Shown piece after piece: positions 1-23,102 of a stretch of 64,000 nucleotides of DNA. Origin of the DNA: a virus. Position 1 is the first letter of the stretch; each line of letters opens with the position of its first letter. The notes under the pieces are model-generated. The model was not told where the DNA came from. It saw only the letters and a program-made list of their open reading frames with translations, and searched no databases. Location: IMG/VR virus record IMGVR_UViG_3300013132_000021, one strand, 5' to 3'. A program made the position numbers and the translations under genes.

Positions 1-999
1 GAACGTGATTTAGAAGTTGTATTAGGTGAATACATAGATGCAGAATGCGGTATAGACGGCGATGTAACTCAAATTATTTTAAAAGATGGCCGACGTATCC
101 AAGGAGATTGGTTTTTTGATTGCTCTGGATTTTCTAGATTGCTTATTAATAAACTTTTAAAAGTTGAACAAATCGATCTCAGCGAAACTTTTCCGGCAAA
201 CAGTGTTGTAGCATGGTGGTCTGATTCTTCTCCTTCGTTGACCACTAACGCATTCGCTATGCCGCATGGTTGGTCATGGAATATTAATCTAAAACATCGA
301 TCGGGTAATGGATATATTTTTGATCCAGATTGTATCACATTAGATCGAGCCATAGACGAAGCGTCTGTAAGATTTAATAAAAAAATAGAGCCGGTCGCTA
401 ATTTCACGTATACCCCCGGTATATCTAAATTACATTGGAAAAACAATGTGATAGCAGTTGGGCTAAGTTCGGGATTTCTTGAACCATTAGAAGCTAATGG
501 TGTAGCAGTAATAATAGAAGCAATGTATTCCTTATTAGACTACTGGGATCCGGATAAATCAGTAAAAGCGCAACATAATAAAACTGAAAAATTTAATGAT
601 AGAATGTTTACTTTGTATAATGATATCAAAGATTTTCTAGCGTTGCATTATCGAGGAAAACGAAACGACAGCGAATATTGGAAAAAATTAAAAAATCCTC
701 AAACTATTCCAGATTCTTTGAAAGAGAAACTTCAGCGATGGGAAGATTTTTATTATCGAGACGGAGTAGAGCCACAAAGTCTAGGATATTCCGAAGCTGC
801 ATGGTTAATGGTGTTACAAGGGCTTGATTATTTTGATGTAAAAATACTGCAACAACGGCCGTTCGTAAAAATACATGAAACTTCGGGATTAGAAATTATA
901 AATAAGAGTAGAGAATATTATAAACAATTGGTTGATCCATTTTGTACCTTAGACGAATGGATGCTTACTCCCAGTTGCACTACAAACAAGGAGAACTAA
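1..999 (+). CDS. Flavin-dependent tryptophan-halogenase-family protein (5' end outside window)
   Basis: Frame is open from base 1 (ERDLEVVLGE...GDWFFDCSGFSRLL) into track ORF 139..999. Motifs: FFDCSGF, GWSWNIN (WxWxI), GLSSGFLEPLEANG, IKDFLALHY..R.DSEYW. Confidence 0.9.
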   Translation, partial: ERDLEVVLGEYIDAECGIDGDVTQIILKDGRRIQGDWFFDCSGFSRLLINKLLKVEQIDLSETFPANSVVAWWSDSSPSLTTNAFAMPHGWSWNINLKHRSGNGYIFDPDCITLDRAIDEASVRFNKKIEPVANFTYTPGISKLHWKNNVIAVGLSSGFLEPLEANGVAVIIEAMYSLLDYWDPDKSVKAQHNKTEKFNDRMFTLYNDIKDFLALHYRGKRNDSEYWKKLKNPQTIPDSLKEKLQRWEDFYYRDGVEPQSLGYSEAAWLMVLQGLDYFDVKILQQRPFVKIHETSGLEIINKSREYYKQLVDPFCTLDEWMLTPSCTTNKEN

Positions 1000-1000
1000 A

Positions 1001-1177
1001 ATGGCAGAAAATTTGAAAACATATGAGATTTTTTTAAGAGAGTCTACTACTTCCTTAAGAATTGTGAGAGAAACGTGTCAAGCTGTTGGTATAAAAGAAG
1101 CACAAAGGTATTTTGAACAAACTTTTGGTGTTGGACGCACAGTTGCAGGACCAAGTTTAGTTAAAAACCCTAACTAA
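1001..1177 (+). CDS. Small hypothetical protein, 58 aa (MAENLKTYEIFLRE...VAGPSLVKNPN), below the ORF-track cutoff
   Basis: AAGGAG Shine-Dalgarno at 988-993, ATG at 1001 right after the halogenase stop, TAA at 1175-1177. Confidence 0.7.
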   Translation: MAENLKTYEIFLRESTTSLRIVRETCQAVGIKEAQRYFEQTFGVGRTVAGPSLVKNPN

Positions 1178-1806
1178 ATTTTTCCAGAAAGTTTGTGTTC
1201 AGCCATAACTTTCGCAACTTCTTGCTTTACTTCGGGGCCGGTGTAATCGTAGGGCAACCCCAGACTAGGCCTTGTATCCCATTTTAACCATGCAAGATTT
1301 CCGTTAGCTCGTACATACTGTAAAAAACATTGTATTTGTTTTTTACCTGTAAATTCATCTCTCCAGTGCTCTTGTGCATTTCCGTTATAGATTACAAGGT
1401 CTCCTTGATTTAGATGGATTTCGTGAGTAACACCTTGATCTGATTTAATAAACAACGGCCAATCTTGATCATCTTTTCCAATACATACGCTGACACTTAT
1501 TTCACTACTGGATCTATCAAAGTGAGGATCTAATCTACTACCGGTGCGATAAATTCTTGCATAAGAGTATACAGGAAATAATTCTTCGCCGACAGTCTTT
1601 TCTATTACAGGCAAAAGATATACAGATAGTGCTTCAAAACACAAAGGAGCATATCTAGCAAATGAATTAGGTGACATGTCAGCCATAGACACAGTGGGAT
1701 AGATTATTGCACAGCAAGATTCTTGCATTTCATATTGTATGGCGCAGAGTTTGCATATCTCGGTAGGCACTGCGTTTGTCAACAGTTTATAATCAGGCTG
1801 TATCAT
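1174..1806 (-). CDS. Fe(II)/2OG-dependent oxygenase (prolyl-hydroxylase/PKHD-like phage type)
   Basis: YARIY..G..L.PHFDR.S.EIS (HxD), distal EHWR, IQCFLQY. Start moved to the ATG at 1806, which makes an ATGA overlap with the upstream stop. Confidence 0.85.
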   Translation of the reverse strand: MIQPDYKLLTNAVPTEICKLCAIQYEMQESCCAIIYPTVSMADMSPNSFARYAPLCFEALSVYLLPVIEKTVGEELFPVYSYARIYRTGSRLDPHFDRSSSEISVSVCIGKDDQDWPLFIKSDQGVTHEIHLNQGDLVIYNGNAQEHWRDEFTGKKQIQCFLQYVRANGNLAWLKWDTRPSLGLPYDYTGPEVKQEVAKVMAEHKLSGKI

Positions 1807-2360
1807 AGAGGAATGAAAGATAAGTTGTCCCATGGCAGCTGAGTATGTTGAACAACTTTGGTATTGTTGGTTACTAAAATGTCAAATCCTAGAGTAATTC
1901 TCATTCCGTCGTAGGGTCGCTCTGCGACAACTTTATGTTTTCTATAGCCCGGCCCAAAATAAATTTGACCAGGTTTATTATCTATCACATAATTTTCAAA
2001 ATCAGTAAACGTGTTTTTCGGATCAATGGATATGTATCCATGATAATCAAATGCATGGTTATGCCAATCTAATCGATCTAATTCTTGATAAGACATATAA
2101 TTCATCCAAGACTGCAACCATATTTCATTGTCTGCCCCTAACTGTAATTTTATAAATTGCTGTAGTTCTTTAAATATTCCATAGAATACACTTGAAGGAC
2201 CAGCCAAACTAAAAATGTTATATCGATCATATGTCCATGTGGTATCAGCATCGGGATACATTTTTTTAAAAGAATGATAGGCTAGCTGCGTGTGCAATAT
2301 AATATCCTTAATATTTTTTTCAATATATTCAGATTGATATAATGTATAATCTTTCATCAT
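1803..2360 (-). CDS. Putative Fe(II)/2OG oxygenase, HxH type
   Basis: SWMN...WHNH...GYI...KHKV...RITLGFD pattern of the DSBH fold. Confidence 0.7.
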   Translation of the reverse strand: MMKDYTLYQSEYIEKNIKDIILHTQLAYHSFKKMYPDADTTWTYDRYNIFSLAGPSSVFYGIFKELQQFIKLQLGADNEIWLQSWMNYMSYQELDRLDWHNHAFDYHGYISIDPKNTFTDFENYVIDNKPGQIYFGPGYRKHKVVAERPYDGMRITLGFDILVTNNTKVVQHTQLPWDNLSFIPL

Positions 2361-2971
2361 CAGGGGATCACTATATTTTCTAAATTCATGTTTATCACGC
2401 TTCTACATTTATTTTCAATTGGCCAGGACGACGTGTGATAATATTTTCCTTCGAATATTACCACTTTACCCTTTTTTGGTTTGATTTTTTTCTTGATTGT
2501 AAAATTTCCGGCTAGGGTTCTATCAATATCTAATTGTCCGCTGTTATAAGTATCGTTGGTCTCGTTAAAAATCACAGTTTCACCGTCGCTGTCATTAACG
2601 TAATAAATTGCCACCCAGTGTGGTCGCCATGTATCTATATGTGGAAGATGATGTTGCAGAGAAGACCCGGCTGCATTTAATGTTAAGTTGGCTCGCATAC
2701 GTATGAGATTATTTGCAGATATGCACGGCTGGCTAGTAATACTAAGAGCCAATGGATACACCAGTTCGAAGTATGCTGATGGCTTACCTTCTTCTAAAAA
2801 AAGATGATTAAATCCTTGATGATTGTCATTTCGTTTCAAAAAGGGCTGATCCGGGCTAACTAGATTAGGATTATAATACCACGGGAAATTTGATCCTAAC
2901 ATAATTTTTTCTATGTGATTTTGATAATCAATGGGAATTATGTTTTCAATTTCAAATATATTATCATTCAT
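2360..2971 (-). CDS. Fe(II)/2OG oxygenase
   Basis: FPWYY, PHID, AIYYVNDSDGET, PKKGKVVIFEG..YHTS, RSVINMN. Confidence 0.85.
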   Translation of the reverse strand: MNDNIFEIENIIPIDYQNHIEKIMLGSNFPWYYNPNLVSPDQPFLKRNDNHQGFNHLFLEEGKPSAYFELVYPLALSITSQPCISANNLIRMRANLTLNAAGSSLQHHLPHIDTWRPHWVAIYYVNDSDGETVIFNETNDTYNSGQLDIDRTLAGNFTIKKKIKPKKGKVVIFEGKYYHTSSWPIENKCRSVINMNLENIVIP

Positions 2972-3486
2972 GTTGCTATTCCAAAAAACGTAACGGTAAG
3001 TCTGCCTGTTTCAAGATCATTGCCGAACGTATTCGCAGGAGAATGCCACAAAGTTGGATTAAAAATAATCATTCTATTAAAGACATTTTCTACAGTTAGG
3101 GTTTTTATTAACTCGCCGTTAGGATTCTTATTATAAAATAAAGTTCCGGTACCTATAGGAGGATTTTCATTTAGATAAATTATTCCCGCTACGTTATAAA
3201 ATAACTCGTCTTGATGTATATTTTGTAAAAATTTAGACTCCTCTGTATATGCAAATTGTATTTTCAATCTTTGAAAATTATTTTTTCCACTGACATGTTT
3301 AACAATTTTTTCTGCTAACGAATGGAAAATATTCTCGTGTATTTCGTCCAATGGTTTGCTTTTTTTACCAGGATATCCCGATTGATCTTTTGTGTATTCC
3401 TGTTTTAGTGCAAACGATCTCCATAAACCAGGCAATTCTAAAAAATTATCAACAATTTTAAAATGTTGTGCAATATTAGTTAACAT
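2968..3486 (-). CDS. Fe(II)/2OG oxygenase (DUF6445-like)
   Basis: IVDNF, YPGKKS, IHQD, AGIIYL, GTGT, NVFNR.IIF...WHS, RLTVTFF. Confidence 0.8.
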   Translation of the reverse strand: MLTNIAQHFKIVDNFLELPGLWRSFALKQEYTKDQSGYPGKKSKPLDEIHENIFHSLAEKIVKHVSGKNNFQRLKIQFAYTEESKFLQNIHQDELFYNVAGIIYLNENPPIGTGTLFYNKNPNGELIKTLTVENVFNRMIIFNPTLWHSPANTFGNDLETGRLTVTFFGIAT

Positions 3487-4187
3487 TATCTTACCTTGAA
3501 AAAGAATACATTAGTTAATCTAGTATCTTCTTTACCTTTGCCAAAAAAATTGTCTGCACTATGCCAATTTCTGGTATCAAAAATAATACATCTGTTGTAT
3601 ACATTTCCGATCTGTATTGTGGGAGTAAAGTGCGATCTTTGTTCTTGTCTATATTTTGCAAATTTACTTCTTTCTTCTTCTGTAGAATACACATCTTCCA
3701 TAAAAATTTTAGTATATTTTTCTCCATCAAAATCTATATTATCTGCATATAAGGTAGTGCCTGATTCTATTGGAGCAGTTGGGGAAAGGTAAATTAATCC
3801 AGCCACATGTAGTTTAGGATCGTCATCGTGTACCCATCCAGTACCCCAACTTTCGTCAATCAGTTGAAATCCGGTTTGCATATCGTATATTTCCTGGACT
3901 CCGTAATCTTTTATTATCTGAAAAATTTTTCGAATCAAATAATTATATAATTCTATATTTGATTCATGCAATAGCTCGGTACGCACACCTGGCCAAGTTC
4001 CTCTTTCTCCTTTAAAGAACTCTTGTTGTAAGGCCCAGTGTCTTACTAGATCCGGAGATTCGAAAAAGTTATCTATAATGATAGTGGGAAAGTATGGGTG
4101 TAAATGTCTATTCTTTAGATCAAGTCTGCTGATCATAACTCTACTATTATATTCTTCTCTAAGAAATTTTTCTAAAAACTGTTTCAT
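3486..4187 (-). CDS. Fe(II)/2OG oxygenase (DUF6445-like)
   Basis: IIDNFF, WPGVRT, GWVHDD, AGLIYL, SGT, NVYNR...WHSA, RLTNVFF. Confidence 0.82.
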   Translation of the reverse strand: MKQFLEKFLREEYNSRVMISRLDLKNRHLHPYFPTIIIDNFFESPDLVRHWALQQEFFKGERGTWPGVRTELLHESNIELYNYLIRKIFQIIKDYGVQEIYDMQTGFQLIDESWGTGWVHDDDPKLHVAGLIYLSPTAPIESGTTLYADNIDFDGEKYTKIFMEDVYSTEEERSKFAKYRQEQRSHFTPTIQIGNVYNRCIIFDTRNWHSADNFFGKGKEDTRLTNVFFFKVR

Positions 4188-4759
4188 TTTATATCAGCGG
4201 AAAAATTTATAGTGCAAACTATTCTTTTATTAAAAACTTTTGGGCAGGTACTGGCATGATAATGCATACCGTCAAATACAACTACTTTTCCCTTCTTTGG
4301 TTCTGACTTGTGTAGAGGATAATACTTTTCAGCGATTTCGGTTTCTCTAAAAATTACTGTGCTTCCATCGCAATCGTTTAGATAATAAACAGCAGTCCAA
4401 TGAGGAGTTTCCATGTCTCTGTGTACAGTATTATATTGATATGGGCTGCCTGCGTATGCGTATTTTGTGTTGAGTAAAAACCCCAGACGGATTCTGTGAA
4501 CTATTTTTAATTCCATATTGGCTTGTTCTGTAATAGCGTTAACTAATGGAGTAAAGAATTCAGCGTGAGGATTTTGAGATTGACTTGGATGATATACCAC
4601 ATGACCAAAGGCTGGAGTAGATGATGTTTTATCAGTGGCTTTTTCGTAGGTTGTATCTTCCATAAAATGCCACGGGAAGTTTATATCAGTTACTAGATTA
4701 TAGATCTCATTTTGATAGGTTTTATCGACGACATCGAATAACTCCAATGGCTTAAACAC
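4184..4759 (-). CDS. Fe(II)/2OG oxygenase (paralogue of 2360..2971)
   Basis: FPWHF, VHRD, AVYYLNDCDGST, PKKGKVVVFDG.HYHAS, RIVCTINF. Confidence 0.85.
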   Translation of the reverse strand: MFKPLELFDVVDKTYQNEIYNLVTDINFPWHFMEDTTYEKATDKTSSTPAFGHVVYHPSQSQNPHAEFFTPLVNAITEQANMELKIVHRIRLGFLLNTKYAYAGSPYQYNTVHRDMETPHWTAVYYLNDCDGSTVIFRETEIAEKYYPLHKSEPKKGKVVVFDGMHYHASTCPKVFNKRIVCTINFSADIK

Positions 4760-4768
4760 GATTTTCTC

Positions 4769-5425
4769 CTATAAAATAACAATCTTCGATCTAAAAACAG
4801 GTGTACGGCCAGTACTTATATCTTTTACAAAAAAAACTAAGGTGAGACGATCTTCTCCGTCCTGTCCAATAAAGTCTTCGGCAGTGTGTATTAGATTCGA
4901 ATCAAAGGCTATCAATCTATTATATTTAGATGAAATTTTTATGCTGTCTGCAAAACACGAATTATTTCTTATTCTCAGTTCATCGGCTTGTTCTTTAGAA
5001 ATTTTACCTTGGTAAAATTTTATTTTTTCGTCCTGCCTATATTCCATTCCACTATTAGAATCTAATTGTTTTTTTTCTAAAATTGTGGTACCGCTTTTTT
5101 CACAAAAATCTCTATCTAGATAGAGTATACCTGTAATGATAGGTCCCGGATCTGTATGCGCCCACCCCGATCCGTATCGACTGTTTATTTTTTGGAATTT
5201 CGCTTCTACTTTCCATCCTATTTCCCCAATGTCGAAAAATATAGAAAAAAACTTTTTGGTAAAATTTTCAAATATTCCAGGATCTAGTTCATGTAATCCT
5301 TTGCTTCGGATACCCGGCCATCTTCCTTGATCATCAGGATAAAATTCTTGACTTAATGCAAACTTTCGCATCATATCTGGATTTTCTAAAAAATTGTCTA
5401 ATATAATCACTGGTATAGTATGCAT
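4769..5425 (-). CDS. Fe(II)/2OG oxygenase (DUF6445-like)
   Basis: ILDNF, WPGIRS, GWAHTD, GILYL, SGT, YNRLIAFD...HTA, RLTLVFF. Confidence 0.82.
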   Translation of the reverse strand: MHTIPVIILDNFLENPDMMRKFALSQEFYPDDQGRWPGIRSKGLHELDPGIFENFTKKFFSIFFDIGEIGWKVEAKFQKINSRYGSGWAHTDPGPIITGILYLDRDFCEKSGTTILEKKQLDSNSGMEYRQDEKIKFYQGKISKEQADELRIRNNSCFADSIKISSKYNRLIAFDSNLIHTAEDFIGQDGEDRLTLVFFVKDISTGRTPVFRSKIVIL

Positions 5426-5428
5426 GAT

Positions 5429-6163
5429 CTAATTTTTTCTCAATTGATACCAATTTCTATCTGAGCTCTTACTTGGTGGATCGCTAGGATATTTTATCCA
5501 ACAAGGCACGCTAAGACTTATTCTTTTAGCAGTCGGATAGGCTACATGGTAACATCTCGAGGGAATATACAATGCATCGTTGGGCTCTAATTCAACATCT
5601 AGAGCAACTTCTAAATCGTTTTCATCTATGTGTTTGTCATACCGTTGATTATTTAATGTACCGATCTGATACAGGTTAGATATTCTATTATGAAATACTT
5701 TCCATCGTGTTTTTCCTTCTACCTGTATAATAAAATTTACAGGATAGTCGTCGTGTATAGGAAAAGATTTGGCGCCTTCTAACCCGCAATACACATGTAA
5801 TGCAGCATTTATATCAAATATTTTTTCAAAAGTCTGCACTAATTTATTAGTTGTTTCGCTGTAAGATGCATAGTTCATTATCACTAATCCGTGTCCGTGA
5901 TTAACTTTATCAAACAAAAAATTTTTATCTTGAACCTGTCTATCCCATACCCATGTCTTATTTGCCTGTGGGATATCTATTTTCATATTTGAATCTTTAT
6001 CGATTAATTCAAAATTAAAAATCTCAGGACGATTTAAACAACTTTCTATGTCTGCCCACGTTGCTAGAGAACTTGCGTTTGACATAAAATTTTTAAAGAA
6101 ATGAGGAGTATCATTCTTTAATAAATCAGTTTCACTTAGAATTTTTTGCCCAATAAAGTCCAT
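5429..6163 (-). CDS. JmjC/cupin-4 family oxygenase (ribosomal-oxygenase YcfD/ROXA-like catalytic domain)
   Basis: HVY...SFPIHDD...NFIIQVEGKTRWKV...LEPNDALYIPSRCYHVA...RISLS. Confidence 0.85.
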   Translation of the reverse strand: MDFIGQKILSETDLLKNDTPHFFKNFMSNASSLATWADIESCLNRPEIFNFELIDKDSNMKIDIPQANKTWVWDRQVQDKNFLFDKVNHGHGLVIMNYASYSETTNKLVQTFEKIFDINAALHVYCGLEGAKSFPIHDDYPVNFIIQVEGKTRWKVFHNRISNLYQIGTLNNQRYDKHIDENDLEVALDVELEPNDALYIPSRCYHVAYPTAKRISLSVPCWIKYPSDPPSKSSDRNWYQLRKN

Positions 6164-6761
6164 CTATTTTCCTCATAAGTTTTACATTAAATGAAATAGA
6201 AATCCTATCGCTAGTGGTTCCGTTTCGTTCAACTCCGTGCGGTAGATACCCGGGAAACATAATTAATTTTCCCACGGCTGGTTGGAATGACATTGCCGAT
6301 GCACTAATTGGTGTGTAGTGTTTTACTCGAGCCTGCGATGCCACAATATAATCTTGGGAATAGCACTTGTAGAAATTAACTGGACCTTGTCCAGGTTCGG
6401 CTTTCACATAAAATACTCCAGACACAAACGCATTATCGTGTATGTGAACTGAATTTGTGTGATTTTCTCCATTTATGTTTACCCACATATTTGGAATACA
6501 CAACACGCATTCATCTTCGTCGTATCCATAATCACGAACACAATTTTCTGCTTGATTTAATATTTTTTTATAAAGACCTGCTAGTTCCGGATAAATCTCT
6601 GGTTCAAAATCTTGTGATTGCCACCCTCCTTGATTACTAAAATTTCTTCCAACAGGGTCACTTTCATGTAACCTATAACATAATTTTAATATAGGTTCTA
6701 TTTCAATATCGTCAGTATCCTCCCACCAGATAGGAGTGGGGAAATATAATTCATATCTCAT
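6132..6761 (-). CDS. TIGR02466-like putative 2OG oxygenase (HxH)
   Basis: FPTPIW, SNQGGWQS, MWVNIN, HIH, SGVFYV, FPGYLPHGV, RISISFN. Start moved to the ATG at 6761 (ATGA overlap). Confidence 0.85.
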   Translation of the reverse strand: MRYELYFPTPIWWEDTDDIEIEPILKLCYRLHESDPVGRNFSNQGGWQSQDFEPEIYPELAGLYKKILNQAENCVRDYGYDEDECVLCIPNMWVNINGENHTNSVHIHDNAFVSGVFYVKAEPGQGPVNFYKCYSQDYIVASQARVKHYTPISASAMSFQPAVGKLIMFPGYLPHGVERNGTTSDRISISFNVKLMRKIDGLYWAKNSK

Positions 6762-7561
6762 ATTTTGATGAAATCTCGTAAGTTTAAATTGTTGCTTGTT
6801 AGATGCGAAAAAGCAAACGTATGGCTCCACCTAAAATCAACATTTTCCGAAATATACGGAGTATGACACACGTTGGCTTGATACATCGATAATGTTTTTT
6901 CTTTTGTTGGCACACTGCCTAAATATTCGAATCCCCATCTTGCTAAGTCGTCATCGTTGGTGTTGAACCACCCTGAACTTTTTTTAGGTATCTCAGCCAG
7001 CGATCGCCATTCTTCGTGCATTTTATGTTTTGTGTCTATTTGAAAATCGTATATTAAATCGTGCACTTCACCATGGTACTTATAAATTTTTGTACAGCTA
7101 TCCTGAAGGTCATGATCAGTGAACCATAAATTAGCTACCATTCCGTGATCATAATCCATGTGCGGTATTCTCCAGCAGCTGATAGGTTTTATCGATGATT
7201 TATAATATATGTTTCCCCATTCGTGCACCTGTGGATCGAATACCGGAAGTTTAACATTCTCAAGATAAAAATCTCTAATCAATAGGCAAATATCTTTGTG
7301 AACCCATTCTGGCACATGTATGGTATCAAATGGGTTTGGTTGGATAGAGCTAGATAAACTATTGCTTTTCTGGATAGGAAAACAACTTATCACATTTTTA
7401 AATAATTCAAACCCGTCGTCAAAAAACGGATTTTCAACGATCCAATATCCTATGCCGTAATCTAATTCTACAAATTCAAATTTCCAATCTTGAAAAGATT
7501 TAAATTTTATAATCTTATCAAAATTATTTGCATCAGGATAGCATCTTTTAAAATTCATCAT
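6758..7561 (-). CDS. Putative Fe(II)/2OG oxygenase (divergent)
   Basis: IPHMD, VANLW, CT.IY, CHTPY, RWS. Context among oxygenases. Confidence 0.65.
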   Translation of the reverse strand: MMNFKRCYPDANNFDKIIKFKSFQDWKFEFVELDYGIGYWIVENPFFDDGFELFKNVISCFPIQKSNSLSSSIQPNPFDTIHVPEWVHKDICLLIRDFYLENVKLPVFDPQVHEWGNIYYKSSIKPISCWRIPHMDYDHGMVANLWFTDHDLQDSCTKIYKYHGEVHDLIYDFQIDTKHKMHEEWRSLAEIPKKSSGWFNTNDDDLARWGFEYLGSVPTKEKTLSMYQANVCHTPYISENVDFRWSHTFAFSHLTSNNLNLRDFIKI

Positions 7562-8157
7562 TGTATATTAAATGTCATTACATATCTAGATTCTGAACTC
7601 AAATTGGGTTGTACATAATGTTTGAGATATCCAGGAAAAATTAAAACATCATTAGTGGCAACTGAAATTTCTTGATACAGATGTTCTTCAGGAAAAATAG
7701 GCCAAGAAGATTTATGATATTCTAAAGGATCTTTAAAAACTATGTTTCCTGAATTTGGTGGGCAATTTAAATATGCTGATACCACAAAGGTAGTGTTGTT
7801 ATGATTATGTTCTATAGTTTCTCCTGAGAAGTCGTGGCGATTGACCCATGAGTTAGTGATCTTATAATCAGCAGATTGAAAATTTAAATCTTTTGCTAGT
7901 CCGAGTGTGATTATATCTATCCAATCAATAAAATGTTGTAACTCAGACCAGTGGTGTGGTTGTAGATCAGAATCGCAGCTAACAGTTGACCATGCAGATT
8001 TTTTCTCTAATAGACTATTAGTCTTGCTATGTAGAAACAGATCATCTATTTTTGGTTTTAGGGAGTCCCAATTAAAAGAATATTGATACTTCCATATAGT
8101 CGGCCGAAATAACTGTATTTCTCCGTATTGATCTTGATTAGGCAGATGATTCATCAC
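7558..8157 (-). CDS. TIGR02466-like putative 2OG oxygenase (HxH)
   Basis: SWVN, EHNH, SAYL..P.NSG.I.F.DP, IFPGYLKHYV, RYVMTFN. Confidence 0.85.
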   Translation of the reverse strand: MMNHLPNQDQYGEIQLFRPTIWKYQYSFNWDSLKPKIDDLFLHSKTNSLLEKKSAWSTVSCDSDLQPHHWSELQHFIDWIDIITLGLAKDLNFQSADYKITNSWVNRHDFSGETIEHNHNNTTFVVSAYLNCPPNSGNIVFKDPLEYHKSSWPIFPEEHLYQEISVATNDVLIFPGYLKHYVQPNLSSESRYVMTFNIQ

Positions 8158-8377
8158 AGATTTCTACAGCTAGTTTCAAACCCATTAGACATCCCTCCAT
8201 TTTTAATGAATCACTACTTAATTCTTGTCTCTTAGCAAAATCAATAGACGTAATGCCGTATGGGTTTAATTTAACGTTGGCGAAATCAGATTCTAATTGT
8301 TGCAACTCTTTTTGAATTTTTTCCCTTTCTATCTCAAGTGCAACCATTTTATCTAATAGAGTTTGTTTTACTGACAT
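8138..8377 (-). CDS. Small coiled-coil hypothetical protein
   Basis: 79-aa ORF tightly packed in the operon, with a heptad-like helix. Confidence 0.6.
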   Translation of the reverse strand: MSVKQTLLDKMVALEIEREKIQKELQQLESDFANVKLNPYGITSIDFAKRQELSSDSLKMEGCLMGLKLAVEICDESSA

Positions 8378-8380
8378 AAT

Positions 8381-9181
8381 TTATTTCCTTTTGGTGTAAT
8401 TTTTTAAGATCTTAGTTAATCTATTTAATCTTGAAGATAACGAATCAGTCTTCAGAATGGCACAATTAGAGGCATAAACCCAAGCTCTTTCGCGAGTCCA
8501 GTCTGCAGAATCGGCTTCATCAATAGTAACGTCATAGCTTCCCACAGACAGATATTCCCTCTTCATAGGAATAATATGGCATAGAGGTGTTCCGGCTTTT
8601 ACCAAAGTTTCTCCGTGTTTTTTTTTCCAAAACAATTGAATGTTTAAGTTGTATCCATATCTACTATCTAAAATTCCAGTAGCTGAAAAAAATCTATCTT
8701 CGTTGTTATAATGCACCGGCATCATTACAAATACAATATCATCTGATGCCTCAACCCTCCAAGGAGTTTCTATTTTTACGATAGAACTTAATATTTCTGA
8801 AGGATCGTCTAACAAGCACATAGTTTGATTCGGTCCGTGTACCGCCGATACATACCGTGCCACATCGAGCGGATATTCTGGTCCGATTTTGAATCTCCAG
8901 GGTTCCCGCCAGTCATAAGATATACCAGATTCGTGTACTTTGATTATAAAATCAGCAGGAGCCGGTACTATCCACCCAGCCGAGGTGAGTTTAAGAATCC
9001 CCGGACAGTTTTTGGTTGACATCACATTCTGATCTTCTGGCCAAGATCTATATTTTCGACTCAGCTGTTTAGATGGATATATGGGATATAGAGTTGTGAC
9101 TCCTGGCTCCATCGAGTAAAATCGTACCCAGGGTTTTTTCTTCCAAATTTTACCAAATAGTTTTTTACACAGAATGCTCAT
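8381..9181 (-). CDS. Conserved phage hypothetical protein (DUF6065-like / beta-clip-like), commonly found near phage oxygenases
   Basis: KNCPG...GWIVPAP.D, KIETPW, GILD, KAGTPLCHIIP.KRE. Start at the ATG 9181 preceded by GGAG. Confidence 0.55.
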   Translation of the reverse strand: MSILCKKLFGKIWKKKPWVRFYSMEPGVTTLYPIYPSKQLSRKYRSWPEDQNVMSTKNCPGILKLTSAGWIVPAPADFIIKVHESGISYDWREPWRFKIGPEYPLDVARYVSAVHGPNQTMCLLDDPSEILSSIVKIETPWRVEASDDIVFVMMPVHYNNEDRFFSATGILDSRYGYNLNIQLFWKKKHGETLVKAGTPLCHIIPMKREYLSVGSYDVTIDEADSADWTRERAWVYASNCAILKTDSLSSRLNRLTKILKNYTKRK

Positions 9182-10772
9182 CGACTCCGCCATATATATT
9201 TTGTTTTAGAAATTCATAATGGGAAGGGCAACTTTTTACATAATCAATTACATAATCTTTATATTGTTCGTGATTACGTCTTGTAACATTTAATTCTTCG
9301 GTTTTTAAACCAGTCCAATCTTTATAGTACACAAGAGGTTTAAGAGATTCTGGTCGAATACCTTGACCGGCTGCTATGTACATGGCTCCTTGCATATCGG
9401 GAGGGTATACTTGATTAGCTGTTACGTTGCCTATAAGGTTAGCAAATCCACCATGTGTGGCTATAAAATCGTTCATCATATCTGGAGCATATTCGTTAAT
9501 CTGAGTGCACCAACGCCAATATGGGGTATCTGTTCGCATACTAAATGCATAATGCATGGCTACAAAATCTTTGAAGGTTGTTACTTCTCTGTCAACTGCT
9601 AAATTAAATCCGTCTTTTTCGATTCTAGAAACATACCCGTTTCTTCTGTTTAAAATTTCTATCAGCTTTATGATATTTTCGTGTGTGGTGAGTAGTCCAG
9701 TAGATTCTAAAGGTTCGACAAAACCATAACTGAGTCCTATACCTACGACATTTTCTACCCAAGCTCTACGACGTTTGCCGTGTGAGATCTTCACTTGAAA
9801 CATTTCTGCTTGTTCTGCGATTTCTGGACTGTGCTTTACAGCTAAGTGAGTACGAAATTCTTTTTGTGCATCTTCTGGAGTAACAAATCTTGTTGAAAAA
9901 ACATACCCAGTACCAATTCTATTCCATAGTGGGATATTCCAAACCCAACCGTTATCTAGTGCATGACAATCTGTAACGTTGTGCATTTCACGTTCTCTAT
10001 CGATGTATGGAATTCTACATGCCCATGCCATATCATTAGCAAGGCTGTCTTTAAATGAAACAAATTGTGAGCCCATCCAATTTTCTAATAGAATAGATTT
10101 AAATCCTGTACAATCAATCCACAGATCTGATTTAAGAATCTGCCCAGTCTCTGTAAATATCTCTGTGATGTTACCAGATCTGTCTTTTTTATAACTATGA
10201 ATATCGCCCTGTAGATGTTTGACACCATTCGGGATAGCTATGTTATCTCGTAGATAATTTCCAAAAAGTCCTGCATCCATGTGATATGCAGTATCATATT
10301 TGAAATTAAAATTTCGCAAGACGCCTTGTTCATTTTTTGACTGTTTATTGTATTTGGCCAACATGGTATTTCCTGTACAGAAAAATTCTGCAAATGATTC
10401 AGGACCAAATTCTTTAGGAAACATTGCTGCTAGCTCTACCCAAGACTGAATACCGTTGGGCTTGTCTGTGAGATCAAATCCGGGAGCAAACGGATATTCA
10501 AATGATTCTCCTTGTCCCTGTCTAAAATTGGTAAATCTTATTGAATTTTTATAAGTAGCATTACACGCTGCCATCCAGTCTTCGTCTTTCAAATCTAAAA
10601 TATGTAAAAATTTATTGATATGGCCTAGTGTGCTTTCGCCCACCCCAACCGTGCCTATCTTTTGAGATTCGATTAGAGTAATTTCTAAAAAGGGGCATAG
10701 TTTTGATAAGGCAGCAGCGGTCATCCATCCTGAAGATCCTCCGCCGATTATGGTAATTTTTTTTATATGCAT
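9165..10772 (-). CDS. Flavin-dependent tryptophan halogenase family protein (PrnA/RebH-like), full length
   Basis: GGGSSGW FAD motif, VGEST, ATYKNSIRF (catalytic Lys position), AYHMDA, IDCTGF, GWVWNIP, GFVEPLESTG, DTPYW. Confidence 0.93.
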   Translation of the reverse strand: MHIKKITIIGGGSSGWMTAAALSKLCPFLEITLIESQKIGTVGVGESTLGHINKFLHILDLKDEDWMAACNATYKNSIRFTNFRQGQGESFEYPFAPGFDLTDKPNGIQSWVELAAMFPKEFGPESFAEFFCTGNTMLAKYNKQSKNEQGVLRNFNFKYDTAYHMDAGLFGNYLRDNIAIPNGVKHLQGDIHSYKKDRSGNITEIFTETGQILKSDLWIDCTGFKSILLENWMGSQFVSFKDSLANDMAWACRIPYIDREREMHNVTDCHALDNGWVWNIPLWNRIGTGYVFSTRFVTPEDAQKEFRTHLAVKHSPEIAEQAEMFQVKISHGKRRRAWVENVVGIGLSYGFVEPLESTGLLTTHENIIKLIEILNRRNGYVSRIEKDGFNLAVDREVTTFKDFVAMHYAFSMRTDTPYWRWCTQINEYAPDMMNDFIATHGGFANLIGNVTANQVYPPDMQGAMYIAAGQGIRPESLKPLVYYKDWTGLKTEELNVTRRNHEQYKDYVIDYVKSCPSHYEFLKQNIYGGVDEHSV

Positions 10773-10792
10773 ACATTTTTCCTTTGGTGATT

Positions 10793-10798
10793 TATTTA
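10793..10798 (-). promoter_or_regulatory. Late promoter motif TAAATA upstream of the halogenase/oxygenase operon
   Basis: AATAAATAAAT about 20 nt upstream of the 10772 start. Same motif as in front of structural genes. Confidence 0.55.
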
Positions 10799-10917
10799 TT
10801 GATATTAAATCATAGAAATATTATTTTGATATATCGTATATCTGTATCGTTTTTGGATTTCTATACTGCTCGTAGGGATATTTTCCGTTCCATTTACTAC
10901 ATCTCGAAGAGATTATA

Positions 10918-11511
10918 TTATAATTTTTCATTTAGATTAAATGCCAAGCTAATTCTAGGTTCAGTGTTATTATGGGGATATACTCCGTGTCTTAGATTGC
11001 TCCTAAATACAACAAGTTGACCTTCTAAAGGTTGATAGATAGCGGCCGTACAATTTAAATCTGTGTCCTTGTCTACTCGGATAGGTCTCATTTCAAATAT
11101 TGAATTGGGATTTTCAAAAACCAGTCGACCGCTTTTTTCAGGTACAGAAACATAATATATCGCGCTGAAATCAAATCCTGGATGTATGTGCGGTTCTTGG
11201 AAATCTCCCTTTTCATAATAATTCATCCAGCACTGCTGTATCTGATAGTTTTTGATGCTTCCGTAGCTCCTTGAAAAATCATCGACTTCCAGTTCCACCC
11301 AATTAGAAAAATCACACAGTATTGGGGAATCTTTAAGAAGAGGATTCTGGAATCCCTTCTGTATCGATTTGGTCCAAAATGGCCAACCTTCGATCTCGCC
11401 GGACGACGAGTAGTCCTTTTTTGGATATAATTTTAACAATTCTTTTTTTAAAGAATCATGATACGGATAAAAAGAATGGTAGATTCCTATAGGAAACCAA
11501 TAAGTTATCAT
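10918..11511 (-). CDS. TIGR02466-like putative 2OG oxygenase (HxH)
   Basis: WMNYY..GDFQEPHIH, SAIYYV..P..SG.L.F.NP, LRHGV, RISLAFN. Confidence 0.85.
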   Translation of the reverse strand: MITYWFPIGIYHSFYPYHDSLKKELLKLYPKKDYSSSGEIEGWPFWTKSIQKGFQNPLLKDSPILCDFSNWVELEVDDFSRSYGSIKNYQIQQCWMNYYEKGDFQEPHIHPGFDFSAIYYVSVPEKSGRLVFENPNSIFEMRPIRVDKDTDLNCTAAIYQPLEGQLVVFRSNLRHGVYPHNNTEPRISLAFNLNEKL

Positions 11512-11515
11512 CCTG

Positions 11516-11521
11516 TATTTA
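11516..11521 (-). promoter_or_regulatory. Late promoter motif TAAATA, 4 nt before ATG 11511
   Basis: Minus strand reads TTAAATA CAGG ATG, immediately after a terminator. Confidence 0.6.
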
Positions 11522-11528
11522 ATTAGAT

Positions 11529-11559
11529 AAAAAAATGCCCTAAATTTTTAGGGCATTTT
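11529..11559 (-). terminator. Rho-independent terminator ending the fibre operon (possibly bidirectional)
   Basis: Perfect inverted repeat AAAATGCCCTAAA-tt-TTTAGGGCATTTT (11532-11559) followed by a T run on the minus strand. Confidence 0.8.
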
Positions 11560-11583
11560 CCTTACAACCTCGATTCGTTGAAT

Positions 11584-12084
11584 CTAAGCGATGTATCCCT
11601 TCCATCCTGGATATCTTGTCCACGACGGAATTTCAACCGTAGATGGTCTGCATGGTTTATCCTCTGAAGGTTCAGAACTAAGAGCCTGTGCCTGCAAATA
11701 TTCTTCTGTTAACGTAGCCGGGTCTGGATCTGCCGGCGGACGTTCAATCATGGTTTTAACCGTAGCTATGTGATTGAACCACTCTCCGTTGGTGTCTAAA
11801 CTTCCATTTTGTCGAATGTCGTGATAGATTAAATCTAATTGTTCTTCAATCCGTCCATAAGCAACTTTTCTAGCAACTTTTTTATCGGTATAAGGAGCGT
11901 CTCTTTCCACCCATATCATTTGTTGTCGACTGGGACTCCATTCCAATGTCCATTCTCTTTGAATATTATCTGGTGCATCTACCCAAGCGATAGTAGCACC
12001 TGCGCCTTCATAAATTAAAAAATCTTCGCCGGGATCTACAATATCTTGTACATATCCTTGATAGGTCACTATTACTTTTTTCAT
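11584..12084 (-). CDS. Hypothetical protein, probable fibre-associated/assembly protein
   Basis: Last gene of the fibre operon, with AGGA SD. R..AYG.IEEQLD.IYHD...W..HI..VK resembles small phage fibre-associated proteins. Confidence 0.55.
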   Translation of the reverse strand: MKKVIVTYQGYVQDIVDPGEDFLIYEGAGATIAWVDAPDNIQREWTLEWSPSRQQMIWVERDAPYTDKKVARKVAYGRIEEQLDLIYHDIRQNGSLDTNGEWFNHIATVKTMIERPPADPDPATLTEEYLQAQALSSEPSEDKPCRPSTVEIPSWTRYPGWKGYIA

Positions 12085-12099
12085 ATGTTATCCTCAAAT

Positions 12100-12954
12100 T
12101 TATCTAAATTCTTCAACCACCACAATTCCTGGACGTCCATCTGATCCTCGATGTCCACTGAAATATCCACCAGTGCCTCCGGTTCCCGGAGCTGCGTGTC
12201 CTTGATGATTGTGTGTGAAATTTCCACCGTTTGGGTGTCCCGACGGAGCAGCCCCTCCAAAATGTGTAGCGCCGCCCATACCAAAACTATGGTGATGATC
12301 GCCACCCGATCCTTGGTGAAGATTTAGATTACCACCTGATCCCGTTCCACTCACACCGCCGCAGTGTTGTGCTTGTCTATTGGCACCATGTCCACCACCT
12401 GCGCTCATGAATGGACCAAAACTGGTGGTCCCCCCGTCGCCGCCAGCACTTGAGTAATATGTTCCACCACCACCACCACCGATGGTTACGCTAACACTGC
12501 TGGTTCCTGTGACATCGATAATTCTTTCTGAATAGCCACCAGCGCCACCACTTTCACCGTGACCACCTCCACCACCACCACCTGCTACTAATTTAACTCT
12601 GATAAATCTAACTCCGCTGGGTCTATTCCAGGTTGAGCTGCCAGTAAAAACCTGCATGCCGCTGAATCCGATTGATCTATATTCTAAGGCATTATTAGCT
12701 GAATTGGTTATTAGTACAGTATTTGCTGCACCGATTGTGGTTAGGCCGGTGCCGCCTTGAGGTACACCAACAGAACCTGTGGTAATTGCAGATGTTAGAT
12801 TAACTGAACCTGTGGTCAACTTTGCAGATGTTACAGCATCATTGGCTATATCTGAAGTTGGAAGTGTTCTACTAGCAATATTGCTATTTGTTAGTGCATT
12901 GTTAACAATAGAATTCTGTGTTAAATTTTTCAAAGTTTGATAATTAAACGGCAT
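12100..12954 (-). CDS. Gly/His-rich fibre-tip/adhesin-like protein, paralogue A
   Basis: N-terminal AVTSAKL-type shaft repeats and GGTG motif. C-terminal glycine-rich domain (FTGSSTW.RP.GV...GGGGG...GG.TSFG...G.PG.V.V.E). Confidence 0.7.
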   Translation of the reverse strand: MPFNYQTLKNLTQNSIVNNALTNSNIASRTLPTSDIANDAVTSAKLTTGSVNLTSAITTGSVGVPQGGTGLTTIGAANTVLITNSANNALEYRSIGFSGMQVFTGSSTWNRPSGVRFIRVKLVAGGGGGGGHGESGGAGGYSERIIDVTGTSSVSVTIGGGGGGTYYSSAGGDGGTTSFGPFMSAGGGHGANRQAQHCGGVSGTGSGGNLNLHQGSGGDHHHSFGMGGATHFGGAAPSGHPNGGNFTHNHQGHAAPGTGGTGGYFSGHRGSDGRPGIVVVEEFR

Positions 12955-12970
12955 CTTGTTATCCTATTTG

Positions 12971-13828
12971 TTAATAATATTCATAGACTACTACTATACC
13001 CGGTCTACCATCAGCACCTCTATGTCCACTGAAATAACCGCTGGTACCACCTGTACCTGGAGCAGAATGTCCTTGATGATTATGTGCGAAATTACCACCG
13101 TTTGGGTGTCCTGCTGGACCTGCTCCGCCAAAATATGTTGATCCTCCCATACCGGTGGATCGCTGTTCGTGACCACCACCTGATCCTTGGTGAAGATTTA
13201 TATCACCGCCTGAGCCTCCTCCACTTAGGCCACCGTTGTGTTGGTTGTGTCTATTGGCACCATGTCCGCCACCTGCGCTCAGGAATGGACCAAAACTGGT
13301 AGCCCCCCCGTTGCCGCCAGCACTTGAGTAATATGTTCCACCACCACCACCACCGACGGTTATGCTAACACTGCTGGTTCCTGTGACATCGATAATTCTT
13401 TCTGAGTAGCCTCCGGCCGCACCACTTTCCCCGTGTCCGCTGCCACCTCCACCACCTGCTACTAATATAACATGTATGAATCTTACTCCTGATGGGCGAC
13501 TCCAGGTTGAGCTGCCGGTAAAAACCTGCATACTCCTGATACCGCATTCTCTGAATGTATAGGCATTGTTTGCGTCATTAACACCTAGGATTCGATTTGC
13601 ACCTGCAAAGCCTGTTAGACCGGTTCCTCCAGACCCAGCTGGAATTGAGCCTGTTACCTTTGCACCTGTTAAATTTACTGATGCATTGGCTAGTTCGCTA
13701 GCTGTAATTGTAGAGTTAGCTAAATTTGTACTGGTAACTGCATCGTTAGCAAAATCTGCACCCGTAAGAGTGTTTGCTACAAAAGAACTAGAATTTAAAT
13801 TCCTTAAAGATTGATAGTTAAAAGGCAT
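12971..13828 (-). CDS. Gly/His-rich fibre-tip/adhesin-like protein, paralogue B
   Basis: Same MPFNYQ start and architecture as A. Confidence 0.7.
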   Translation of the reverse strand: MPFNYQSLRNLNSSSFVANTLTGADFANDAVTSTNLANSTITASELANASVNLTGAKVTGSIPAGSGGTGLTGFAGANRILGVNDANNAYTFRECGIRSMQVFTGSSTWSRPSGVRFIHVILVAGGGGGSGHGESGAAGGYSERIIDVTGTSSVSITVGGGGGGTYYSSAGGNGGATSFGPFLSAGGGHGANRHNQHNGGLSGGGSGGDINLHQGSGGGHEQRSTGMGGSTYFGGAGPAGHPNGGNFAHNHQGHSAPGTGGTSGYFSGHRGADGRPGIVVVYEYY

Positions 13829-13837
13829 CGATTTCTC

Positions 13838-14689
13838 TTAATAAAAGTTAGTTACAATAATTATGCCAGGTCGCCCGTCAGTTCCTCTATAACTGTGGAA
13901 ATGAGCTCCGCCGCCACCTGCTCCAAGAGCAGAATGTCCGTTATGATTGTGACCAAATTGTCCACCGTTGGGATAATTGCTAGCAGTTCCGCCACCAAAG
14001 AAACTTTCCGCCACAGACGATGAATCTCTGGCATGATGACTGTAGCCACCGCCTGTATGAATATTAAGATTACCACCCGATCCCGCTCCACTCACACCGC
14101 CGCAGTGTTGTGCTTGTCTATTGGCACCATGTCCACCGCCGGCACTTATGTATGGACCGAAACTAGAAGAGTTTCCGTTACCTGCTGCTCCAGAATAATA
14201 TGTTCCACCACCACCACCACCGATGGTTACGCCCACACTTGAAATTCCTGTAACATCTAAAAATCTTTCAGCATAGCCACCTGCTGCTCCGCCCTCTCCG
14301 TGTCCGCTGCCACCACCACCTGCGCCATTTACCTGAACTTTTATATATTTTACTCCGGCTGGGCGAGTCCAGGTTGAGCTGCCGGTATACACATTTATAC
14401 TGGCTATTCCGTGAGGTTGTTGACTTAAATTTGTTCCGTCACTTTGAAGAGCTCTTCCTGCTCCAGAAAAACCAGCTACTCCTAGGCCGCCACGCGATGC
14501 AGGTAATGTTCCTGTTACTGTTGCGCTACTTAAATTTACAGCACCTGTGCCTAATTTAGCTTCAGTTACACTGGCTAATACTAGTCTATCACCGGCAACG
14601 GTGGTGTTTTGTAATTTACCTGCCGTAATAGTACCATCAGTAACTGATTGTGAAGTATATTGTTTTAGTGTTTGATAGTTGAATGGCAT
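13838..14689 (-). CDS. Gly/His-rich fibre-tip/adhesin-like protein, paralogue C
   Basis: Same MPFNYQ start and architecture as A and B. Confidence 0.7.
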   Translation of the reverse strand: MPFNYQTLKQYTSQSVTDGTITAGKLQNTTVAGDRLVLASVTEAKLGTGAVNLSSATVTGTLPASRGGLGVAGFSGAGRALQSDGTNLSQQPHGIASINVYTGSSTWTRPAGVKYIKVQVNGAGGGGSGHGEGGAAGGYAERFLDVTGISSVGVTIGGGGGGTYYSGAAGNGNSSSFGPYISAGGGHGANRQAQHCGGVSGAGSGGNLNIHTGGGYSHHARDSSSVAESFFGGGTASNYPNGGQFGHNHNGHSALGAGGGGAHFHSYRGTDGRPGIIIVTNFY

Positions 14690-14695
14690 AATATT

Positions 14696-15166
14696 TTATA
14701 TAGAATCTAACAACCAGCCTCTAGTAGCATCATAATATGTCATAGACAGTGCTGCACCTTGTGTGCTGATAGTCATAGTATCATTGGTTCGCATAATAGG
14801 GGCACCGTTGGGTACCACTGAACAATTATTGGTTTGAAATGTACCGTGGGTGTCATAGATTTTAATGACATCTCCTTGTCTTGGACTAGCCGGTAGAGTT
14901 AAATTTACTGCTGCTGACGTGGTGTTGACCCAGTAGGCATGATTTGATCCCATGGTTTGGCTACTAGCTACTGCTAGATTTGGCAATGCCCCTACCACAA
15001 ACCAATAACTGCCGTTCCAAATTTCTAGTTGATTAACGTCAGTGTTGAAATATTGAAAACCTTTTTGGTCTCCAGCCAGTGTTGGTCGTTGAGCTGTGCT
15101 ACCGGTACCTACTAAAATAAACTCTTCGGTTATAGGTTGGATTCCGACTCTTGTGTGACGTCCCAT
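14696..15166 (-). CDS. Small fibre-associated virion protein
   Basis: G.TAQRP...G..YFNT...LEIWNG..W motif shared with genes 29494, 30681 and 31778, then an LTLPASP..GD beta domain. Confidence 0.55.
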   Translation of the reverse strand: MGRHTRVGIQPITEEFILVGTGSTAQRPTLAGDQKGFQYFNTDVNQLEIWNGSYWFVVGALPNLAVASSQTMGSNHAYWVNTTSAAVNLTLPASPRQGDVIKIYDTHGTFQTNNCSVVPNGAPIMRTNDTMTISTQGAALSMTYYDATRGWLLDSI

Positions 15167-15499: not shown

Positions 15500-15521
15500 A
15501 ATTTATTCTCCATGTTTATAT

Positions 15522-23060: not shown

Positions 23061-23102
23061 TTTCTACTCCGTATCCTTTATTTATTAATATAAAATTAAT
23101 TG

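Follow-up and report, generated by a model that had tools for sequence, protein, structure and literature searches.

A cyanophage island of 2-oxoglutarate oxygenases and flavin halogenases beside fibre-tip genes: an enlarged Syn9-type cluster with a possible role in virion protein tailoring

We analyzed a window of 64,000 nucleotides (nt) from the IMG/VR virus record IMGVR_UViG_3300013132_000021, which represents the reverse strand of a 129,780-bp virus fragment of that database (completeness 36% by CheckV), and whose first 14,689 positions encode an array of Fe(II)/2-oxoglutarate (2OG) oxygenases and flavin-dependent halogenases downstream of fibre genes. Judged by gene content and sequence comparison, this enzyme island is almost certainly an enlarged member of the halogenase/dioxygenase cluster of Syn9-type cyanomyoviruses. 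This cluster has been known since 2010, when Iyer, Abhiman, de Souza and Aravind (PMC2938197) described Syn9 gp38-gp54 as containing an array of ten dioxygenases, drawn from five or more families and with the MINA/NO66-type gp49 among them, as well as gp43, a Cys protein of the dUTPase fold, and interpreted the cluster as one for the synthesis of halogenated secondary metabolites. A preliminary description of this DNA overlooked that the array is the known Syn9 cluster. All features examined for membership in such a cluster were found here, namely tandem dioxygenases of multiple families, a JmjC protein, halogenases, a dUTPase-fold Cys protein, and colinearity. As for the substrates of these enzymes, virion or fibre proteins are our leading hypothesis, although we place it somewhat short of even chances.

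A tblastn layout showed the island to be colinear and orthologous with Syn9 gp38-gp54 and with S-CREM1, both of which are annotated in the order fibres, Gly-rich genes, gp40, halogenase(s), gp43, gp44 and about ten oxygenases, and the same gene order was present in 42 IMG/VR loci. The gene-for-gene colinearity with the Syn9/Syn10 cluster included the dUTPase-fold gp43 and the JmjC protein gp49, with protein identities of 31-63%. However, the island differs from the Syn9 cluster in several respects. Syn9 possesses 10 oxygenases and 2 halogenases, whereas 12 and 2 are present in the window and 16 and 4 in the whole island, and it has two Gly-rich genes where three paralogues are found here. The Syn9 promoter lies before gp40, whereas in this lineage the halogenase gene comes after a terminator and has a late promoter of its own. 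Additionally, the island has an extra convergent sub-cluster beyond the Syn9 cluster, and its genome is an uncultured phage fragment. Megablast comparison of window positions 1-15000 with the phage collection yielded no match.

The genes considered here are all on the minus strand, except for the partial halogenase gene at 1-999 (+). On the fibre side, the order of transcription is a gene for a 2512-amino-acid (aa) fibre, genes for two small proteins, the three Gly/His-rich paralogues, the gp40-like gene and a terminator; on the enzyme side, it is Oxy5_a, the AATAAATA motif, and an operon at 10772-1174 with genes for a flavin halogenase and for proteins of 270 and 79 aa, together with eleven oxygenase open reading frames (ORFs). 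The twelfth oxygenase, Oxy5_a, is an insertion just upstream of the late-promoter motif AATAAATA. Positions 1-14689 therein encode 12 predicted oxygenases in six sequence groups (as defined with Pfam and hhalign), along with a complete VirX1-type halogenase, the C-terminal part of a second one, a predicted dUTPase-fold protein and a small helical protein. The genes between 1174 and 10772 are tightly packed, with neighbours that overlap by 1-73 nt or are at most 9 nt apart, in agreement with the preliminary description of a dense operon on the same strand as the fibre genes. Its statement that the enzymes abut those genes was correct in that the enzymes lie downstream of them, but the gp40-like gene and the terminator intervene. 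Past the window start are two further halogenases and four further oxygenases, and the far end of the whole island is a gene for a 678-aa baseplate/fibre-connector protein with its own ATAAATA motif, followed by the genes for the tail-sheath stabiliser and the sheath. Structural genes border the island on both sides, in this genome and in S-RIM44.

Pfam named 10 of the 12 oxygenases (three as 2OG-FeII_Oxy_5, two as Oxy_3, three as DUF6445, one as JmjC_2/Cupin_8 and, weakly, one as Oxy_2), and the six groups obtained with Pfam and hhalign bore out the earlier count of 12 such enzymes in at least four subfamilies. The proteins matching PF13759 were Oxy5_a (10918-11511, 197 aa; E 3e-24), a lineage-specific insertion found only in the five closest relatives, Oxy5_b (7558-8157, 199 aa; E 1e-11) and Oxy5_c (6132-6830, 232 aa; E 2e-22). 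A fourth protein of this type, the Pfam-negative p185 (1803-2360, 185 aa; Syn9 gp47 type, phrog_2696), was related by hhalign to Oxy5_b (90%) and has an HxH pair, a distal His and an Arg. The three DUF6445 proteins (PF20043) were DUF6445_a (4769-5425, 218 aa; H90-x-D92, H180, R193), DUF6445_b (3486-4187, 233 aa; E 4e-14, with the metal triad) and DUF6445_c (2968-3486, 172 aa; E 1e-14). Oxy3_a (4184-4759, 191 aa) matched PF13640 (2OG-FeII_Oxy_3) with an E value of 1e-6 and has H113-x-D115, H168 and R179; Oxy3_b (2360-2971, 203 aa) had only a weak match to PF13640, below the cut-off, but aligned with Oxy3_a at 100% in hhalign. The remaining members were p267 (6758-7561, 267 aa; Syn9 gp46 type, phrog_1644), a Pfam-negative protein with invariant H134-x-D136, H233 and R244-x-S246 that appear in the sequence as RIPHxDY, a later His, and RWS; Oxy2 (1174-1833, 219 aa; Syn9 gp54 type), a weakly AlkB-like protein (PF13532, E 2e-4, below the cut-off) with H104-x-D106 and H156; and the JmjC oxygenase (5429-6163, 244 aa; Syn9 gp49 type, PF08007, E 1e-13).

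For all 12 proteins, the metal-binding pair (HxD or HxH), a distal His and an Arg were conserved across the orthologues. The HxD...H arrangement was kept in p267, the JmjC protein, DUF6445_a to DUF6445_c, Oxy3_a, Oxy3_b and Oxy2, and in the classical members the conserved Arg, which corresponds to the basic residue that binds the 2-oxoacid, is 10-14 residues past the distal His. The four Oxy_5-type members (10918-11511, 7558-8157, 6132-6830 and 1803-2360) have HxH...H instead of the usual HxD/E...H. In profile searches of the PDB, the only matches of the Oxy_5 profile were 3BVC and 2RG4, which are uncharacterised structural-genomics proteins, and searches with the Oxy_3 group, p267 and DUF6445 returned nothing useful; from the Pfam and profile matches we infer a double-stranded beta-helix fold for these oxygenases. 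The JmjC protein, which is 51% identical to Syn9 gp49, had NO66 as its best PDB profile match (5e-9), followed by YxbC, YcfD and MINA, with the triad conserved as H137-x-D139 and H206. The ribosomal oxygenases NO66, MINA53 and YcfD are His/Arg protein hydroxylases, and these matches support the prediction that the phage protein is of the protein-hydroxylase type and belongs to the NO66/MINA/YcfD clade. However, those enzymes consist of a JmjC domain with a dimerisation and a winged-helix domain, whereas the phage protein is a JmjC domain alone (244 aa, with the match at residues 89-214).

The complete halogenase gene, Hal4 (9165-10772), encodes a predicted flavin-dependent halogenase of 535 aa (PF04820, E 9e-110) that is the orthologue of VirX1 from cyanophage Syn10 (PDB 6QGM), to which it aligns over its full length (E 4e-197), and it is about 53% identical to the Syn9/Syn10 gene. 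The other, Hal3 (1-999, +; PF04820, E 3e-58), is represented in the window by the C-terminal 332 of its 517 residues, as its start lies beyond the window, and it is the last gene of the convergent sub-cluster past the window start (two oxygenases, Hal1, Hal2 and Hal3). The two halogenase-family genes of the preliminary description, one complete and one a C-terminal part, were thereby confirmed by Pfam and by their motifs: both retained GxGxxG, the catalytic Lys, two Trp residues and EPLE. Hal4 has these intact as GGGSSG, K75, WVWNIP and EPLES, whereas the strict WxWxIP pattern was not found in Hal3, which kept the two Trp, Lys and EPLE. Hal1 to Hal3 are 24-28% identical to Hal4, and two of these three deviate from WxWxIP. 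VirX1 is reported to have an active site that is large and open, has no known natural substrate, prefers iodide to bromide and bromide to chloride, and halogenates many small aromatic compounds in vitro (PMC8407142). No flavin reductase was found in the 129,780-bp fragment, and FADH2 would therefore have to be supplied by the host.

The enzyme operon is very probably expressed late in infection. A T4-type late-promoter motif, ATAAATA (AATAAATA, 10800-10793), is located at 10793-10799 on the minus strand, 20 nt before the ATG of the halogenase gene. This motif occurs 28 times in the 130-kb genome, and 19 of these copies precede a same-strand gene by no more than 100 nt, where 1.65 were expected (P 2e-17); 13 copies are 15-35 nt upstream of genes. 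Ten genes preceded by ATAAATA were scanned, and these comprised five tail/baseplate genes, one virion structural gene, gp32, a nucleotide-sugar epimerase gene and two without a match. In nearly all IMG/VR relatives TAAATA was present 27-50 nt upstream of the halogenase gene, though the flanking sequences had diverged. Late expression is well supported because ATAAATA is tied to the starts of genes, because most of these genes are structural, and because the motif is conserved before the halogenase gene; the late timing proposed in the preliminary description is thus upheld as a prediction from promoter motif and conservation. Among its two candidate motifs, that at 10793-10798 is credible, while TAAATA at 11516-11521, which reads TTAAATA and is 4 nt from an ATG, was rejected as a promoter. 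The nucleotide-sugar epimerase gene (genome C1:108469-109440), with ATAAATA 22 nt upstream, hints at late glycan chemistry elsewhere in the genome.

The position of the motif varied among relatives. In Syn9 and S-CREM1, ATAAATA is before gp40 and not directly before the Hal4 orthologue, and in S-WAM1, P-RSM6, S-SZBM1 and P-TIM40 it is before a Gly-rich gene. In these six cultured phages the gp40-like and halogenase genes follow closely in the same string of genes, and there the halogenase and fibre genes appear to share a late transcript. For the convergent sub-cluster on the Hal1-Hal3 side, no late motif was found. In the present lineage, an intrinsic terminator, consisting of a hairpin and U-run at 11529-11562 (minus strand), separates the fibre unit from the enzymes; it folds with -18.5 kcal/mol (z -5.5), and none of 200 shuffled sequences folded as well. 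A generic terminator scan missed this hairpin because its U-run pairs into the stem, but folding confirmed it.

The enzyme genes are linked to a particular set of fibre-tip genes. The 42 IMG/VR loci, which were found through their MPFNYQ proteins, kept the order of Gly-rich, gp40-like, halogenase and oxygenase genes wherever there was sufficient DNA, although these loci are relatives at 55-90% identity and much of the conserved order reflects shared ancestry. The module was found in several genera with 3 to 12 oxygenases, and between all relatives the count ranged from 3 to 16; the halogenase, gp40-like, Gly-rich and JmjC genes co-occurred as a set, and in P-RSM6 an oxygenase gene is interleaved among the fibre genes. 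The gp40-like gene was present in only 11 cultured phages, each time immediately upstream of a VirX1-type halogenase gene, and every phage record with a Gly-rich match had such a halogenase gene 0.6-4 kb away. When homologues of the Gly-rich domain were searched for, the 120 matches listed were all close relatives.

S-RIM44 was the most telling case for this linkage. In its isolates of about 197.5 kb, three Gly-rich genes, a gp40-like gene, two halogenases, a gp43-like gene and six oxygenases are located between the giant fibre gene and the neck gene gp13, whereas in the isolates of about 193 kb the whole Gly-rich/gp40-like/halogenase/gp43-like/oxygenase block is missing at once. The isolates that lack the block have a fibre gene that is 65-78% identical, a different tip protein of 294 aa, a weak gp40-like ORF and one Oxy_5 oxygenase. 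Direct comparison between isolates Np_42_0711 and Sn_08_0709 showed an 11-kb enzyme/Gly-rich block in the former where the latter has a 2.2-kb block encoding another tip protein and one oxygenase, between flanks that are 94-95% identical. Fibre, accessory proteins and enzymes are thus swapped together, in an all-or-none manner.

The fibre module that accompanies the enzymes is headed by a gene for a giant tail-fibre protein of 2512 aa (15522-23060, minus strand as are all genes of this module; PHROG tail fiber protein, E 3e-180), with a late ATAAATA motif at 23079-23085, 18 nt before the fibre start. It is followed by genes for two small fibre-associated proteins with PHROG tail/tail-fibre matches, one of 106 aa (15179-15499, with ATAAATA at 15519-15525 before the gene) and one of 156 aa (14696-15166), both of which were kept in all relatives. 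The three Gly/His-rich fibre-tip paralogues are C (13838-14689, 283 aa; PF21722, E 3e-10), B (12971-13828, 285 aa; PF21722, E 4e-15) and A (12100-12954, 284 aa; PF21722, and phrog_863, E 4e-55). They start with MPFNYQ, are 53-69% identical to each other, and have C-terminal domains with 28-31% Gly and 6-7% His. The structural model of paralogue B (predicted local distance difference test score, pLDDT, of 80-95 in the core; the N-terminus and residues 223-269 poorly modelled) matched in Foldseek, over residues of about 80-220, the solved fibre of cyanophage Pam3 (7YPX; E 5e-7), Bxb1 tail-tip proteins (E 9e-5) and the Gly-rich domain of ALK/LTK. Predicted viral structures that it matched included Syn9 gp38, Syn9 gp39 and over 250 "glycine-rich domain" proteins of phages. 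On the strength of this model, the paralogues are real fibre domains, as the preliminary description had proposed. The predicted fold resembles that of the polyglycine-II fibre domains (Pam3 7YPX/7YFW, Bxb1 9D93 and ALK/LTK; Foldseek E 5e-7 to 9e-4), although sequence identity to paralogue B is just 15-27%, and only the Syn9-type Gly-rich group, unlike the Pam3, Bxb1 and ALK domains, has conserved His clusters and a link to tailoring enzymes.

The last gene of the fibre transcription unit encodes the gp40-like protein of 166 aa (11584-12084), which has 7 Trp residues (4.2%), of which six are conserved in position, and a conserved C-terminal motif, PAWxRYPGWKGY. This richness in Trp is notable in that the gene always precedes a gene for an enzyme of the tryptophan-halogenase family. 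The gp40-like protein was also considered as a flavin reductase, and this was rejected, as it had no Pfam match, PF01613 was absent from the genome, and Atlas leads pointed weakly to tail-assembly chaperones.

We prefer virion or fibre proteins as the substrates because the late motif, the structural-gene setting and the co-inheritance with a particular fibre-tip set are jointly best explained in this way. According to this model, the enzymes would be made late in the host cytoplasm, simultaneously with the virion proteins, and the host would supply FADH2, halide, O2, Fe(II) and 2OG. The enzymes would hydroxylate and halogenate a bulky substrate, of which the likeliest would be the His/Tyr/Asn-rich glycine domains of the co-inherited fibre-tip proteins and perhaps the Trp-rich gp40-like protein, and the modification would alter tip stability, metal binding or receptor specificity. 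The JmjC protein-hydroxylase clade and the large open site of VirX1 (PMC8407142) were both counted in favor of a protein-type substrate. Furthermore, no adenylation or condensation domain of the nonribosomal peptide synthetase type was found in the 129,780-bp fragment, which extends to the whole fragment the earlier observation that no scaffold-building enzyme accompanies the array. The term "RiPP-like" (for ribosomally synthesized and post-translationally modified peptides), which had been applied to the system, is a poor label, as the 22 ORFs searched with Pfam revealed no leader/core precursor, recognition element, protease or exporter, and the proposed substrates are structural proteins of full size. 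In its fullest form, the proposal would have this cyanophage hydroxylate and halogenate (possibly iodinate or brominate, in line with the halide preference of VirX1) its own fibre tips and gp40-like protein late in infection, with enzymes and tip forming one swappable host-range cassette; we hold this form a shade more tentatively than the general one.

Precedents for such a pairing are partial. In certain bacterial operons, Gly-rich/tail-collar proteins have been proposed as oxygenase substrates, but the phage array was not tied to its neighbouring fibre genes in that study (PMC2938197). Those operons, which combine hydroxylase/sulfotransferase genes with tail-collar/collagen-like Gly-rich genes, follow the same logic of an enzyme beside its substrate as seen here. 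They differ in that their enzymes are beta-hydroxylase, PhyH and sulfotransferase, without halogenases, in that they are bacterial and do not concern virions, and in that the pairing is itself a proposal. A 2OG oxygenase has been detected in a virion preparation of another cyanomyovirus (PMC12801897), so that late in infection enzymes of this kind can reach high abundance, but this does not demonstrate modification of the virion.

Several observations weigh against virion proteins as the substrates. There is as yet no report or demonstration of a modified virion protein, and the table of Sullivan et al. 2010 does not flag Syn9 gp36-gp40, including the Gly-rich gp38 and gp39, as virion proteins. 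Sixteen different oxygenases are many for a few small proteins. In this lineage, the enzymes are set apart from the fibre unit by the terminator and by a promoter of their own, and Gly-rich fibre domains are common across phages, including such non-cyanophages as Goslar, FoX6 and mycobacteriophages. In bacteria, the same set of halogenase, JmjC and gp52-type enzymes is found with TonB receptors instead of fibres (PMC2938197). The preliminary description had suggested synteny of array and fibre genes as a check, and while the order kept across genera and the S-RIM44 block agree with such synteny, single homologues of the enzymes are also found far from fibres: Syn30, S-P4, S-E7 and Sf-CH1b each have a solitary JmjC homologue in a replication module, and halogenases of at most 40% identity adjoin SbcCD or psbA (replication/photosynthesis genes) in S-B64 and S-MbCM6. 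In S-B64, additionally, the Gly-rich fibre gene is about 86 kb from the halogenase gene, with no array annotated beside it. Finally, the co-inheritance of the block could reflect a recombination hot spot rather than a shared function.

The alternative that survives best, though we consider it rather unlikely, is the small-molecule pathway of Iyer et al. 2010, in which the enzymes would act successively on a free amino acid (e.g., tryptophan) or a short host-derived peptide. The product, judged equally unlikely, would be a halogenated, polyhydroxylated metabolite made during infection, such as a siderophore-like compound or an antibiotic. This is the published view of the Syn9 cluster, for which the four oxygenases of cephamycin synthesis provide a precedent, and it draws on the bacterial clusters just mentioned, in which halogenase, JmjC and gp52-type oxygenases occur with TonB receptors and SapC (PMC2938197). 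The acceptance of many small aromatics by VirX1 in vitro (PMC8407142) fits such a pathway, as do the six unrelated oxygenase groups, since a series of different steps would call for such variety. The gp43-like proteins weakly match a single Pfam family, DUF6065, which is also present in Caulobacter, which likewise carries halogenase-family genes. However, neither the island nor the 129,780-bp fragment contained a scaffold-building or export gene, and if synthesis began only from a late promoter, a metabolite would have little time to act before the end of a lytic infection. This pathway would also leave unexplained the constant attachment of the enzymes to the fibre-tip genes and their joint swapping.

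It is improbable, in our view, that the enzymes instead act late in infection on host macromolecules, either host proteins (e.g., ribosomal proteins, as for NO66/MINA53/YcfD) or precursors of the envelope or receptor. The purpose, which is equally improbable, would be either the tuning of translation or the masking of receptors, the latter to keep progeny from being lost on debris. Receptor masking would explain the co-variation of the enzymes with the receptor-binding fibre, and the JmjC protein is closest to ribosomal-protein hydroxylases, but it lacks their dimerisation and winged-helix domains. The solo JmjC and halogenase homologues in replication modules of phages without the fibre cassette indicate that the Gly-rich proteins are not needed there, and the nucleotide-sugar epimerase gene elsewhere in the genome carries the late motif. 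However, the island has no membrane, secretion or glycan-handling gene, and the late timing would leave little time for remodelling of the cell surface.

Least probable is a mixed bag of unrelated oxygenases and halogenases collected, with no common substrate, at a recombination hot spot beside the fibre genes, serving with the same low probability such functions as AlkB-type DNA/RNA repair, nucleotide chemistry with the dUTPase-fold protein, or a nitrogen-linked draw-down of 2OG: 2OG oxygenases are scattered in cyanomyovirus genomes, with proposed roles in DNA repair and 2OG/NtcA (PMC3037559), and one AlkB-like member, one predicted dUTPase-fold protein, the variable oxygenase count and the lower G+C of the island (0.33-0.37, relative to 0.44-0.46 in the fibre genes) fit a chance collection, but most members keep both their order and their orthology from genus to genus over long divergence, at 30-60% identity, the genes overlap as in a translationally coupled operon, the catalytic residues are all kept, and the core genes are found together.

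Few unexplained genes of cyanomyoviruses, marine or freshwater, are as conspicuous as the tandem 2OG oxygenases and the PrnA/VirX1-type halogenases, and VirX1, for all that it has no known natural substrate, is in use as a biocatalyst. The late motif, the embedding among structural genes and the joint gain and loss with the fibre tip make the question directly testable in phages already available, namely Syn9, Syn10, S-CREM1, P-TIM40 and the S-RIM44 isolates of both types. If virion proteins are modified, this would constitute a new kind of virion maturation and an extra layer of host-range variation in abundant ocean viruses; were our proposal true, no earlier case of a virion protein halogenated by an enzyme would precede it, and VirX1 would gain its natural substrate. 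If virion proteins are unmodified, the secondary-metabolite interpretation of 2010 gains weight.

Two further proteins are encoded in the operon between Hal4 and the oxygenases. The gp43-like protein (8381-9193, minus strand, 270 aa), whose start overlaps the halogenase stop by 29 nt, has an invariant Cys, C63, that was conserved in 18 distant relatives, and its model, which is of moderate quality (pLDDT 64), matched dUTPases in Foldseek (E 3.5e-4), suggesting a probable dUTPase-like beta-barrel. Weak tblastn relatives were found in haloarchaeal myoviruses (HRTV, HF1 and HCTV), and 1602 clusters of relatives in a large protein library indicate a broad uncharacterised family; a search of prokaryote genomes for related loci, with a single distant gp43-like member as the query, found none. 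The gp44-like protein (8138-8377, minus strand, 79 aa) is a small helical protein with the invariant motif KLNPYG.T.IDF. As the only small ORF of the operon it was considered as a RiPP precursor and rejected, since its conservation peaks centrally and it is predicted to be helical.

The G+C content of the enzyme island (window positions 1-12000) was 33-37%, compared with 42-48% in the fibre and neighbouring structural genes (12001-52000), and the step falls at the terminator/promoter boundary. Near-identical Gly-rich proteins were present on contigs of 240-381 kb, including the record "uncultured Caudovirales phage UFOVP181", and because of this and of the 36% completeness of the 130-kb fragment the host lineage of the island may be a jumbo phage rather than an ordinary cyanomyovirus of 170-200 kb. 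One of the only two exact TATAAATA sites in the window is located at 897-904 (+), inside the 3' end of Hal3 and 96 nt upstream of a 58-aa ORF (1001-1177, +) that occupies the convergent gap between the two enzyme sub-clusters.

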